Position numbers and translations under genes: made by a program
Assembly: GCA_964019425.1 (NCBI GenBank)
Contig: OZ025799.1
Location: forward strand, 930,001 to 994,000
DNA from: Flectonema sp. DT1601
Taxonomy: Eukaryota
Direction: 5' to 3'
DNA length: 64,000 bases
The notes under the pieces: generated by a model
Seen by the model: only the letters and a program-made list of their open reading frames with translations
Databases searched by the model: none
What the model was told of the DNA's origin: nothing
Shown: piece after piece, positions 37,392 through 60,986 of the stretch
How positions within the stretch are numbered: position 1 is the first letter of the stretch
How the letters are laid out: every line of letters begins with the position of its first letter

Positions 37392-40342
37392 ATATATATT
37401 TTTTTTTTCTGCCTCTCTCTTAATTCCGTTCGTTTCTTTGAAACAAAAATTCATTTGAATATTATTCCTTGGTCAGCATCTGTCATTGTCGCCCTTTGGG
37501 CCTGTTAAAAAAAAAAAAAAATAAAAAGAAAGCGAGATTTTCGCTATTGGGGGGTCCAATAATTCCATTTTCGCTATTCAGTAAAAGAATTTTTTTTTTT
37601 TTCGCTGTTCACTGAATATGATAATTTTTTTTCTCCATTCAGTAACAAAAAAAAAAAAATTTTCGCTGTTCATGAAAAAAAGTGGATCAAGCCCTACGCA
37701 CCCTAGACAGGGAATCGGCAAAGATAGGACTGTGCCTCAGGCCCGCCAAGTGCCAGACGTATGTCTTACAGGAGAGCCCAGTCGAGCTCCCGTCCGGCTG
37801 GGGATTGGAAGGCATGGGGAGCCCCCTCTTTAACGGGGACTTCCTAGGTTCACCTTTCGGATCGATCACACATGTCCGGAACTTCGTAACGCAGAAGGTC
37901 AGCAAGCTACAGGACAAGGCCCGTCTGATCGCAGGCATGGAAGACAGACAGGCAGCCCTAGTCCTACTTAGACAGTGCTCGGGCTTTTGCGAAGTCACAC
38001 ACCTGATGCGGAGCTGCTCATTCGATATAACGGAACAGCTGCAGATGGTAGATGAAGTCGTCAGGGGGACTGCCTCAGAGGTACTAGGACAGGGTCTGGA
38101 AGGCTTGAGATGGATCCAGGCGCAGCTTCCCACGCGGATGGGCGGACTCGGCCTCCGTTCATGCACAAAACACAGGAATGCCGCCCTTTTAGGTTCGCTA
38201 GGACTAGTAAAGGATACCTGCGTAAGCCTTTGGCGAGACTACAAATGTGACCTAAGTTCGCAGATCCAAGAAACGCTGAACAAAGAACTGCCGGATAGCC
38301 TAAAGCTGGAGGGCACATATAACCCACAACGCTTCACCTCAGCCAGGCTAGACCAGGTCATACGGGACAAGCTGCTGGAGGAAGCGACGCCAACCGACAA
38401 GAACGATGCCGAAAGCGAGTGCGTGGCTACAGTGCCCGGATGAGGAGTGCTACATAGGCTCCGACATATTCCGTATCGCCTGCGGACTACGACTCGGGAC
38501 AGCTTTGTTCTCAGAAGATGAGGCCTGCCGTGCTTGCAAAAAAACACAGGATGCGTACGGATACCATGCCTCTGTCTGCATCGACGGCGGGGATATCCAC
38601 CGCAGACACGATAAAGTGAGGGAAGAATTTATCGGCATCTGTCGTTCGGCGGGCTTGGCAACGATGAGGGAACCCAAATACCTCGTCGGATACAACAAGC
38701 AGCGACCTGCAGACTGGTACTGCCCGCAAGGATTGAGCGAGGGAGTCGGACGGGCGTTTGACGTCACGATCGTCAACCCAGGGGCATCCAGGAACTACAA
38801 CAAGCCGGGCCAAGCAGCCAGTGATGCGGAAGCCGCAAAGTCAGGCAAGTACTCGACCTTATGTGCAAAGTACGGAATAAATTTTTCCCCGATTGCCCTT
38901 GAAGTCTACGGAGGTTTAGGCCCACAAGCAGTGAGGACGCTAAGCCGACTGTCGCAGCTGCGCGCCCTTGTCACGACGTTACCCCTACGAGAAGTTGCAG
39001 GCCTGTATGCCAGGAGGGTCTCAACCCAATTGGTGGTCTGCACTGCAGAAGCCCTCAGAGCAAGAGGAGCATCGCTCACACACCAAGCGACGTCATCCGC
39101 AAGCAAGCTGCACACGCCACATACGCCGTCGGCACCGAACACATCCGATGACGGAGTTGAATTACCAGGTGAGATTTGGACTGTTAGCTTTTGGCTAAGG
39201 CCCTCCCTGAAAAGCAAGAACAAAAAAACTACTCACACCTGAAGAAAACATACACAAAGAACACACTGTAAGCTGTGTGTGTATTTTGTGTTTGTCACAA
39301 CAGGAGAGAAAAGAAAGAATGTCAAGGTTGGTCACCTTGCCTATCAACGCACAACATTGGTGGTCTCTACTAGACCCTGAGTGATCCCACTGGATCTCTC
39401 ATCGTTCATAGTACCTATGTGAAGTTATAAAATCAAAGGTAAACTATGAACTACAAATGACTTAGCCTGTTATTATAATGCCACAGGCAGGCCCTGCATT
39501 CAGCAACTATCCAGCAGTGCTTGGATGTCCTGATCTTCTTCTAAAAAAAAGAAAGAAAAACAAAACTGTAGCTGGGATCACTCAGGATCAACAGACTACC
39601 AATGCTACCTGTTGTACTTGCTCACTATGGGGGGTGATGCCAAACACCCAGAAGTACTAAACTGCTTTCCTTCTTGCTGCCCAGGAGTTTCTGACCAGAA
39701 CTAATAGAAAATAAAAAGTAGATGGGAAACAATAAAAAGTAAAATGCATGCATATAACTGAAGTTAAACAAGACAAATGAAGTAACAGACCAGAACAGAA
39801 AGAGAATAAAAAGAAAAGATATAGGCAAGAGTGATTGTAATAGAAGATTACAAATAAAAAAATGCAAGTATCAACACATGATCAAGAGGAGTTGAATTAC
39901 CAGGTGAGATTTGGACTGTTAGCTTTTGGCTAAGGCCCTCCCTGAAGAGCAAGAACAAAAAAACTACTCACACCTGAAGAAAACATACACAAAGAACACA
40001 CTGTAAGCTGTGTGTGTATTTTGTGTTTGTCACAACAGGAGAGAAAAGAAAGAATGTCAAGGTTGGTCACCTTGCCTATCAACGCACAACATTGGTGGTC
40101 TCTACTAGACCCTGAGTGATCCCACTGGATCTCTCATCGTTCATAGTACCTATGTGAAGTTATAAAATCAAAGGTAAACTATGAACTACAAATGACTTAG
40201 CCTGTTATTATAATGCCACAGGCAGGCCCTGCATTCAGCAACTATCCAGCAGTGCTAGGATGTCCTGATCTTCTTCTAAAAAAAAGAAAGAAAAACAAAA
40301 CTGTAGCTGGGATCACTCAGGATCAACAGACTACCAATGCTA

Positions 40343-41030
40343 TCTTAGTTTACTCAGGGAATGATCACCAAGTCCACTTTTGTGCTCTCTTTTCTTACTT
40401 GTTTTTACTTTAAAATTTTCTGGTTAAAAATACCAAAAAATCTGCCGTGACCAGGAATCGAACCCCCGACCACGGCTACGTAAGCGATTTAAGGTCGACG
40501 ACCATAACCACTCGGCTATGCAGGCTCTGGTACGTTGAAAATTATTTTACACTTATTACTTTTCTGTCCTAGCGGAACGGAAAATGAAAAATGTCCTTCC
40601 TTATCTAAAATGCACTCTGCACCTAAGATGTTGGTTCAGCAGTGGCTTATCGAATTTATTAGCTCTCGTTGCACTGGTTAGCGCTGTGTTTGAGACGTTA
40701 TAGTTTATCGGTACACTTTTAACTTATATTTTTAATTCCTTTCCAGCAAATTTTGCTCTTCTTTCTGTTTATATTAAAACAAAAGAATTTCCCACCCATC
40801 CCACCCTGGGTGTTTCTTCTTGAGGTTCGTTTATTGTATACCTGTTGTTTTTGGCTTGTTGCACCGCTCTTACCTCGGTGCTTTTCAAAGTCTTGGGTTT
40901 CTGACCTCTTGAAGATGCAACATTACCCCGACGTCAGTAGTTTATGTTTTATTTCATTGATTCACTATAATTTTATTATCCCTTTGTTTATTCAGTCTCA
41001 ATTACACAATATGGACGATGATGATTATTC
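40343..41030 (-). mobile_element. Element F (tRNA-like-containing), inserted in element B
   Basis: Splits AATGCTA|CCTGTTG, which is intact at 39601-39614. Diverged reverse-complement homologue of 59414-60078. Confidence 0.85.
40443..40525 (-). pseudogene. tRNA-derived sequence (long variable arm type) within element F
   Basis: A-box TAGCCGAGTGG and B-box GGTTCGATTCC followed by a T run; acceptor and anticodon stems pair poorly. Confidence 0.7.
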
Positions 41031-42025
41031 CCTGTTGTACTTGCTCACTATGGGGGGTGATGCCAAACACCCAGAAGTACTAAACTGCTTTCCTTCTTGC
41101 TGCCCAGGAGTTTCTGACCAGAACTAATAGAAAATAAAAAGTAGATGGGAAACAATAAAAAGTAAAATGGATATAACTGAAGTTAAACAAGACAAATGAA
41201 GTAACAGACCAGAACAGAAAGAGGATTGTAATAGAAGATTACAAATAAAAAAATGCAAGTATCAACACATAATCAAGATACACCAGCAGCTAACAAACAA
41301 CATAAAATTGAAGATCAGTTGCCAGAGTATTTCAACCATGGTAGAATACTTGCCCCTCTGGCAGGGATTATCCCAGACTTGTCCTTTAATTTAGTTGGAC
41401 ACCATGGCATCAATGTCCGCTTTGTCCCCACAACCTATGGATCCAACTCCAGACCCAACCACACCGCTTGCCGGAGGGAACGACTTGCCAGCGGAACCCG
41501 AGAGGGATTCAGCTACTAGGCCAACTACGAAGCCAGAGGAACACAGTACGAACCTAGCAACTCCACTACACAAAGCCGAACCCACACCAGCCGCAGGCTA
41601 CTCCTCTTCGCCAGAATTTCGATAAAGTGGGAAGTAACGGACTGGGAGCTTTTGGCTCCTGCCCTATTCCCGATGTAAACTTTCTTTTTATTTTATTTTT
41701 TTTAACAGGCCCAAAGGGCGACAATGATGGTTGCTGACCAAGGAATAATATTCAAATGAATTTTCGTTTCAAAGAAACGAACAGAATTAAGAGAGAGGCA
41801 GAGAAAAAAAAAAAAAAAGAAAGAAAAGAAAAGAAAAGAAAAAAAAAAAATGAAGAGGAAATAATCAAACATGAAAAAAAAAAAAAAAAAGAAAATATAT
41901 AAATAAAAAACGTTGTATAAAAAAAGGAAAAAAAAGAAAAAAAAAAAAAAGACCAGAAAAGGAAAGAGTAAATGAAAAGGTATAATATTATTGTGGGGAT
42001 ATGGGGATAGCAGGGAGATGCTCTT

Positions 42026-60078: not shown

Positions 60079-60323
60079 AGTTTAATGATCCATGACTTAT
60101 CTCTCCCTTTTGCCAAAAAAATGGACAAAATTATTAAACCTTTTTTGAAGAAATGGTGGGGATTTGTCCGCTCTGCGAACACAGTCATCCTTTTTACCGG
60201 TTCAAAGAACACTGTTGGTCTCAGACACAAAAGAGTTGAGACGCTATATAAACAAGCGCAATCAATTAAACTAGACATCCTCAGATCCTCACAGGACTCT
60301 GACATGCACGGTGTCTACAAGGT

Positions 60324-60986
60324 GAATAGAAATTTGGGAGAGGAATAGGGGCAGTGAACTTTTGATTCAGGCCCTTCCCAACGAACAGGACGAAGACTTC
60401 TAAAACCTGAGATGAACCAATTGAGTTGAAACAAACAAATAACAGAGACGCAACACATACCGGAACATCATCGCAAGCAATGCTTCGGACCTCCGTCGAC
60501 CTTCGTTCTTCCGGCGGCAAAGGGAAACAAGAAAGAACGGGCAATGGGACAAACCTGTTAGTTGGTGTTGTGCTGTTGTTAAAAACAAAAACATAAACGC
60601 CAGGAAGTTCGACAACGAAGACATCGACATCGATCGCTGCTCTGCAGATGTCCGGCGGGTGTTTGTCTACACTGTGTTTATTGTTTGTTTTTTTCCCAAG
60701 GTTCAACCCTGGGAAGAGAAGTAAAAAATTCCGTCAGTGTTGGCCTTCCTGTTCGAAGGTGCGCACCAATGACGATAAATAGAGTGGGGGGGGAGAAAAC
60801 CTTTGATCCAACTGGATCCCTTCACGAGCTGACATTGCCATGTGAAGTTAAATATTCTGGCGATGCCAGCTCAGGCGACTTAGCCTGCTTTTTTCTTTAA
60901 ATAAAAAAAATAAAAAGATACCAACAGGTGGGGTGATGGGTTGCGCCACTGCAATCCAGTCACAAAAAGAAACAAAGGTAATCTCC
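60324..60986. mobile_element. Element A inserted in the retrotransposon ORF (663 bp)
   Basis: Near-identical to 54183-54846. Removal gives in-frame HGVYK-V-IIMEKS. Confidence 0.88.

Follow-up and report, generated by a model that had tools for sequence, protein, structure and literature searches.

The locus analysed here, a 64,000-nt stretch of the Flectonema sp. DT1601 genome (assembly GCA_964019425.1, contig OZ025799.1, positions 930,001 to 994,000; hereafter the window), raises the question of which enzyme moves four families of non-coding repeats, A, B, C, and F, that share one fixed end. On one strand, this end reads GAAT or GAGT; on the other, which we call the ATTC strand, the copies finish in ATTC or ACTC. 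We find that the four families are real and linked, a structural signal joining three of them and sequence motifs joining the fourth. The chances appear about even that A, B, and C are non-autonomous retroelements for which a borrowed reverse transcriptase of the Penelope-like elements (PLEs) starts copying at the ATTC end, and F probably shares this copying route. To the original prediction made for this DNA, we add a terminal hairpin, tandem units of ~1.3 kb, and a tRNA-like box in F; because the hairpin links three families and the motifs link the fourth, the feature is better supported than that prediction had shown.

A fixed end common to four families

Copies and their junctions were defined by self-comparison of the window and from printed junctions. 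Intact GAAT or GAGT starts occur in 13 copies, while a 14th, a C copy at 46339 on the reverse complement (rc), is short of the first G only (Table 1). The proposed sharing of this end by four families therefore stands. All of the copies listed originally retain the end, and their coordinates hold except for three that were off by 1 (45035, 55269, and 52658; now 45034, 55268, and 52657), while one C copy at 46549 rc had been overlooked. As GA[AG]T occurs at only 0.7% of window positions, its sharing among four families is well beyond chance, even when the post-hoc choice of motif is allowed for. The end is nonetheless not razor-sharp: two insertions bring 1–3 extra bases from beyond it. As first described, the far end is variable in A, B, and C, where it differs at every insertion, but constant in F, where it is identical in both copies. 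Two fragments without the fixed end, one of A and one of C, lie outside the range originally annotated. We also agree that the families contain no credible open reading frame (ORF), the longest stop-to-stop stretches being 62–137 aa and of low complexity.

Table 1. Copies and internal features of families A, B, C, and F. Positions are those of the window; the fixed-end column gives the start of GAAT or GAGT.
Feature	Positions	Strand	Fixed end	Description
A1	35666..36186	+		A fragment without fixed end, A nt 156-678
A2	54183..55175	+	GAAT 54183	Longest A copy, 993 nt of the ~1280-nt tandem unit (from junctions; unit length from looping contig)
A3	60324..60986	+	GAAT 60324	Truncated A within LINE ORF; 3 extra upstream bases resemble tandem-unit sequence before GAAT
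B1	39154..39887	+	GAGT 39154	B nt 1-703, within CRE-like ORF
B2	39889..41408	+	GAGT 39889	B nt 1-833, head-to-tail after B1 with one extra base; split by F2
B3 + B4	52420..54013	-	GAGT 54013 rc, 52657 rc	Full 1356-nt unit (B3) and 238-nt head repeat (B4); partial tandem/pseudo-LTR
B5	57272..57982	-	GAGT 57328 rc	B nt 704-1356 plus 56-nt head; LINE 5' end replaces upstream half
C fragment	37399..37532	-		C nt 67-202, without fixed end
C1	41614..42043	+	GAAT 41614	C head
Inverted C	42044..45037	-		C body (from C nt 139) and satellite array; read as remainder of the C copy headed at 46246-46339 (nesting order inferred)
C2	45034..46245	+	GAAT 45034	Head and satellite; GAAT overlaps internal GAAT of inverted copy by 4 nt
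C4 + C5	46246..46549	-	GAAT 46549 rc (C4)	C4 (nt 1-208) joined within A-tract to C5 (nt 2-94, first G gone); partial tandem
C satellite	46550..51806	+		C-internal satellite, ~130-nt units; unrelated TIR element interrupts at 49949-51185
C3	55268..56915	+	GAAT 55268	Head and satellite; variable end with 4-nt ATTC overlap
F1	59414..60078	+	GAAT 59414	Two fixed ends; blunt insertion into LINE ORF
F2	40343..41030	-	GAAT 41030 rc	74% identical to F1; blunt insertion into B2
Terminal hairpin	54209..54235	-		Example of the shared hairpin; ATTC strand
F/B motif	59811..59830	+		20-nt motif common to F and B; separated from box A by 106 nt in F1 and F2
tRNA-like sequence	59910..59992	+		A and B boxes, internal to F, pointing away from ATTC end; Rfam tRNA 19.4 bits, E 0.29, below gathering score
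F subterminal hairpin	60048..60078	+		Loop complementary to F's own GAAT end (8/9, 16 nt from end, both copies)

A terminal hairpin joins A, B, and C

Families A, B, and C each carry a 27-nt motif, with 17 positions identical, that begins 24–26 nt inside the fixed end. The window contains 12 occurrences, each in an A, B, or C head, and 100 shuffles contain none; a covariance model built from six heads recovers the same 12 hairpins, with no further hit below E 3. The three families fold on the ATTC strand into a common minimum-energy structure, in which a 4-bp stem and a 1x2 bulge are followed by a 5-bp stem capped by a CAAAA loop, set within a looser outer stem that ends 13–15 nt before the fixed end. 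In an alignment of three families with two copies each, 9/9 pairs form in 6/6 rows, such that all 54 cells pair. Three pairs are altered on both sides and two on one side to G-U; both of the latter changes are mismatches on the GAAT strand and pair only on the ATTC strand. That three unrelated families place one 27-nt structure at a constant distance from the start offers a natural and testable definition of a recognition signal, and the hairpin could serve as a barcode for pulling out the enzyme.

Further motifs extend these links. Two more small hairpins are shared by A and B in the same order. F is tied to B by a 20-nt motif (19/20 match; 0/200 shuffles) that is restricted, within the window, to copies of B and F, and to A and B by a 10-mer, for which shuffles gave 2/1000 at k=10, 17/1000 at k=9, and 205/1000 at k=8, the last not significant. 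Both motifs lie on the same strand relative to GAAT. These cross-family motifs emerge only from ungapped word tests and are thus post hoc; in gapped local alignment, no cross-family pair scores above the window-shuffle maximum. The hairpin pattern gave no match in metagenome contigs and none in viral contigs, blanks that mostly reflect the absence of the host from those collections, and a search of the metagenome contigs for relatives of the long interspersed nuclear element (LINE) gave 105 pattern matches, with no confirmed case.

Head-to-tail units

Contigs from 4 public runs (of 20 listed) were compared with the window; they may derive from DNA or RNA, and their loops show tandem junctions only. 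None of the 20 is listed as RNA-bearing, a blank that says nothing about expression. An A contig of 1280 nt and a B contig of 1366 nt each loop back on themselves, and both families therefore exist as head-to-tail units. The unit of B is ~1356 nt, in agreement with B3, which runs directly into a second head of 238 nt, while B5 finishes in a head of 56 nt. We count B3+B4, B5, B1+B2, and C4+C5 as partial tandems, or pseudo-long terminal repeats (pseudo-LTRs). That the halves of B are two separate elements was considered and set aside because B loops as a single 1356-nt unit. Yet the B1/B2 boundary and the LINE 5' end, which are independent junctions, coincide at one B position, nt 703/704 (window positions 39887/39889, 41278/41279, and 57982/57983).

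Inverted C segments, examined for the inverted truncated copy that PLEs carry at the 5' end, are present and can also be read as C nested in C; the 10-kb C complex as a whole can be read as three nested C-into-C insertions. The satellite inside C (42044–51806 and 55664–56915) consists of two alternating ~130-nt units rich in short palindromes and provides a case of a mobile element that spreads a satellite. Homopolymer differences inside C may be errors.

Insertion junctions and empty sites

The earlier claim that insertion produces no clear target duplication is supported by both the flanks and the empty sites. Comparing the suffix of the left flank with the prefix of the right, we observe a direct repeat of 0–1 nt at 8/8 sites, whereas the same comparison returned 9 nt at an unrelated element with terminal inverted repeats (TIRs) that served as a control. 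The 4-nt ATTC overlap of C3 is compatible with a short duplication as well. In 3/4 runs, public contigs connect 59413 exactly to 60079, with F absent, and in 2/4 runs they span the empty site of A3, with two other letters. F1 is almost uncovered in 4/4 runs, which is not proof of its absence. With F1 and A3 removed, the frame of the host LINE is open over 1028 codons; without the B composite, the CRE-like frame reads through at one of two end positions tried.

The junctions are otherwise slightly untidy, with overlaps of 0–4 nt, small losses, and a few extra bases overall. When the A loop contig is compared with A3, the match runs 6 nt upstream of GAAT, of which 3 nt are shared with the empty target and 3 are extra in the filled site, although up to 3 mismatches over the 396 nt compared could not be fully placed. 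A separate B insertion in one public run (X2) shows the same fixed end plus one base, while the B3/B4 site has lost 2–3 nt and gained one. The insertion sites have no common target motif: left flanks end in RG in 3/11 cases, and on the ATTC strand, T directly follows the fixed end in only 1/11, so that there is no target rule of the Helitron type. A local ~250-nt repeat (segments at 52061–52420, 54014–54182, 55176–55267, and 56916–57085) has been hit by A, B, and C and constitutes an insertion hotspot.

Signals within family F

At its far end, F has a subterminal hairpin whose loop is complementary to its own GAAT end (shuffle p 0.002 and 0.004 for the two copies). Both F targets end in GG, which lengthens this pairing, and in one public run (X1), the match of a 72-nt piece continues 9 nt into the target flank. 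The end pairing resembles the asymmetric repeats of Helitron2 and is the best argument for F, or all four families, moving as DNA.

F also contains a tRNA-like sequence that is 78–90% conserved between the two copies, compared with 35–60% in poorly conserved stretches; ARAGORN does not call it. Box A lies 106 nt from the F/B motif in both copies, matching the 104–106 bp at which trypanosomatid tRNA-like boxes drive divergent small RNAs, as described for those loci (PMC4950102). By this analogy, divergent transcription of F would point toward ATTC. An intron was considered as an explanation of F and rejected, as there is no GT-AG pair on either strand and F interrupts both the LINE ORF and B.

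Proposed copying by a Penelope-like enzyme

Target-primed copying is the simplest account of the combined features: a fixed end with a covarying hairpin, a far end that varies, units in head-to-tail order, absence of clear duplications, and short overlaps or losses. The ATTC strand would be transcribed through tandem copies, and the reverse transcriptase would bind the shared hairpin and begin copying at the ATTC/ACTC end. The enzyme would nick DNA with little sequence preference and prime from the nick at a site 0–3 nt beyond ATTC, aided by 0–4 nt of pairing. Copying that halts early would give a truncated element, copying that runs into the next unit a pseudo-LTR, and a template jump could give the C4-to-C5 junction. 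Host repair would then seal the far junction, at times with the loss of a few target bases.

Much of this behaviour has precedent. In a published account of a purified PLE enzyme, reverse transcription begins internally at an AC-rich stem-loop, needs no homology to the target, and can use the element's own copies as targets (PMC11167929). Chlamys and Naiad PLEs are described as 5'-truncated and partially tandem, with no canonical hammerhead, and non-autonomous PLEs such as MRC1 as having head-to-tail copies (PMC8557442). The families here work in a manner similar to such non-autonomous PLEs, of which they are candidate members only. As far as the MRC1/Chlamys elements of Chlamydomonas reinhardtii are portrayed there, the shared traits are the non-coding sequence, a fixed 3' end, 5' truncation, partial tandems, head-to-tail copies, no discernible duplication, no canonical hammerhead, and internal tandem repeats that add length (PMC8557442). 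In contrast to them, our families have neither microsatellite targeting nor a 30–40-nt tail, have a CAAAA hairpin that recurs across families, and reside in another host group. A second point of comparison is the animal non-LTR retrozymes, which are likewise non-coding tandem units with a proposed PLE dependence but are defined by a type I hammerhead that we do not find (bioRxiv 10.64898/2026.07.22.740005). The ends of our families fit an NUH cleavage triplet, and a hammerhead pattern gave 3 matches, all in B, which are A-rich and by eye stemless. Rfam likewise reports no hammerhead in the window, its matches being confined to pieces of rRNA and one weak hit to tRNA.

Several observations weigh against copying by a PLE. 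Among 10 chosen window ORFs, Pfam identifies no PLE reverse transcriptase or GIY-YIG domain, and the families contain no credible hammerhead core. Beyond the 3' end, a PLE-type tail of 30–40 nt was not found, with only 0–3 extra bases seen in few copies. The hairpin structure was derived from the same sequences that support it, and there are only three independent families; in A and B, it is the GAAT strand that has the lower total folding energy, and G-T pairs form in single-stranded DNA too. The distance of the hairpin from the fixed 3' end also fits the geometry of Helitrons. F lacks the terminal hairpin and is full-length in both copies, and its own terminal hairpin keeps wobble pairs on the opposite strand. 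Moreover, polymerase III transcription of F would be cut off by T-runs well short of ATTC, which makes the divergent promoter in F a lead only. Finally, Penelope is not mentioned in the genome paper of Diplonema papillatum or in 7 supplements to it, whereas the main text does list Helitron and a number of LINE types. Our literature search returned, within the sources sampled, no report of PLEs from diplonemids, Euglenozoa, or Discoba, and the relevant portion of a trypanosomatid survey gives only four retroelement clades (PMC12278014).

The original view of the families as parasites of one enzyme is partly borne out. It is strengthened by the hairpin in A, B, and C, by the two small hairpins in A and B, and by the motifs in F; as F has no terminal hairpin, it is less certain that this family depends on that enzyme. 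The three enzymes first put forward also fare differently, with the Penelope-like enzyme fitting best, an HUH enzyme of the Helitron2 type being a serious rival, and a tyrosine recombinase fitting poorly.

We give rather low probability to a bolder formulation, in which an undescribed integrating enzyme, or the first PLE lineage from Euglenozoa, would read the bulged CAAAA hairpin and insert RNA-templated copies with a near-zero target rule and no duplication, with F carrying a trypanosome-style divergent promoter. If true, a bulged CAAAA hairpin would be read in place of a hammerhead or a poly(A) tail. How PLEs choose their RNA and start site is barely known, with one in vitro study to draw on. 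If the partner is a PLE, the group would be extended to Euglenozoa; if it is an HUH enzyme, the families would represent a rolling-circle variant that does not follow the customary target rule. As long as the enzyme is missing, the case amounts to a good lead rather than a discovery.

Other candidate enzymes

The strongest competitor to Penelope-type copying, which we nevertheless regard as unlikely, is a non-autonomous rolling-circle mode of the Helitron2 type. The ATTC strand would be peeled off as single-stranded DNA, with the hairpin and ATTC forming the fixed 3' end, the variable 5' end reflecting one-ended transposition, and tandems arising via circles or self-insertion. Canonical Helitrons are a poor match, as first judged: the ends here are ATTC/ACTC, and 5'-TC, CTRR-3', and A/T insertion, the features of Helitron1, are not observed. 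The 3' subterminal hairpin of Helitron2/Helentron elements is present on the ATTC strand of A, B, and C, while the 5' T and T-rich target of those elements are not. C holds a satellite at its centre, a common feature of Helentron-derived elements, F begins with TC on the ATTC strand and has an asymmetric inverted repeat (8/9 at 16 nt from the far end), and Helitron ORFs are reported from D. papillatum. As described, the one-ended Helitron2 elements CRe-1,2,3 (PMC3627910) and FoHeli (PMC5148889) share with our families a hairpin near the fixed 3' end, a variable 5' end, self-insertion, possible circles, and the asymmetric repeat seen in F. The outer stem, 13–15 nt before the end, is near the Helitron geometry of 10–12 nt (PMC5148889), and the CRe elements are often 5'-truncated with an over-abundance of 3' ends (PMC3627910). 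However, these accounts place Helitrons before T or after a T-run (PMC5148889, PMC3627910), in conflict with the single T in 11 sites here, and give the CRe elements duplications of 7–19 bp (PMC3627910), which our families lack. The B tandem junction has AG at its 5' start rather than T or TC, and B shows no asymmetric inverted repeat (best 5/9, p 0.95; one orientation scripted). The extra bases, overlaps, and target losses at the junctions are also not expected from precise HUH cut-and-join.

Replitron-1/N1, another comparison (PMC10288648), is depicted as having one exact and one fuzzy end, a subterminal hairpin, and non-autonomous partners, all of which recall our families, and both F copies follow GG. 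Within that description, Replitron-1 always inserts after RG, with 6-bp direct terminal repeats and variable duplications (PMC10288648), unlike the 3/11 RG sites and absent duplications observed here, where the variable end is in addition truncated by hundreds of bases. By eye, short direct terminal repeats of this type were not seen in the families.

An improbable alternative is that the families are partners, similar to short interspersed nuclear elements (SINEs), of the resident LINE with a restriction-like endonuclease (57988–63741) or of the CRE-like element, whose reverse transcriptase would bind a 3' stem-loop, require no tail, and jump templates. LINEs of this kind have a 3' stem-loop, undergo 5' truncation, and insert bluntly or with deletion. 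Such reverse transcriptases are present in the window, where Pfam detects RVT_1 and zf-RVT, and are abundant in D. papillatum, and most of the copies lie in or beside these LINEs. Yet the hairpin is at neither LINE end in the window (0 matches outside A/B/C heads), and a LINE 3' copy near 35090 has a poly(A) end, whereas the families have none. Whole-unit head-to-tail copies are atypical of SINEs, and the targets share no motif. Ordinary SINEs were already doubted in the original prediction, and correctly so: there is no tail or duplication, and the tRNA-like part of F is internal, with no 5' polymerase III head in the sense direction.

Doubtful to a similar degree is an enzyme outside the described orders, or a known fold in a new use, that would read the hairpin and join target 3' ends to GAAT/GAGT. 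None of the known orders fits all of the features tested; in F, a divergent tRNA-like box occurs together with an inverted terminal repeat that lies in a hairpin loop; and the hairpin motif has no relatives in the metagenome or viral contigs. Against this, all of the junction features have already been described for PLEs or Helitron2, and the blank contig searches carry little weight since the LINE was not found there either.

Least probable by far are short derivatives of tyrosine-recombinase retroelements: VIPER and TATE of Euglenozoa, the latter also occurring in D. papillatum, are described as lacking target duplications, with SIRE a short non-coding derivative in the same broad host group, but their ends are defined and their direct repeats split (PMC12278014), whereas A, B, and C have one arbitrary far end with heads of 238 versus 56 nt, and no core is shared by the joined ends and the targets at the two F sites.

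Host and genomic setting

Intron-poor genes fill the first 34 kb of the window and the nested repeat block the remainder. The nearest relatives of two window genes are protist transcriptome proteins with 40–70% identity, some labelled Sspe or Hpha. We take these labels to stand for Sulcionema and Hemistasia, both diplonemids, which makes a diplonemid host probable. Identity among most A, B, and C copies is 97–100%, and their presence varies by sample. The elements thus appear recently mobile, and diplonemid repeat blocks would be shaped by them. An assembly artefact is unlikely, as nearby long ORFs are intact and other runs again show A, B, and the empty sites.

The LINE at 57988–63741 is a 5'-truncated non-LTR retrotransposon with RVT_1, zf-RVT, and a restriction-like endonuclease motif; it is split by F1 and A3, uninterrupted copies are present in public runs, and its motifs are presumably those of a Hero/NeSL-like element. 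A second, frameshifted LINE remnant without a Pfam match (37676–39153 and 41409–41613), which we assume to belong to the CRE clade, hosts the B composite and the C complex. Diverged copies of a LINE 3' part are found at 34282–35105 and 35217–35547, one with a poly(A) end and one inverted.

The TIR element that interrupts the C satellite (49949–51185) has 57-nt TIRs and a 9-nt target duplication, features by which it is similar to Mutator-like elements (MULEs). It contains degenerate pieces of large-subunit rRNA (50484–50929) and tRNA-like fragments and represents a Pack-MULE-like capture of rRNA. In the gene-bearing part of the window, an intronless ORF of 3012 aa (24785–33823, minus strand) encodes a hydrophobic N-terminal segment and a weak LVIVD-repeat match, followed by a long stretch without a Pfam match. 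Lastly, a perfect pair of 33-nt inverted repeats ~790 nt apart (36609–37395) may delimit a miniature inverted-repeat transposable element.

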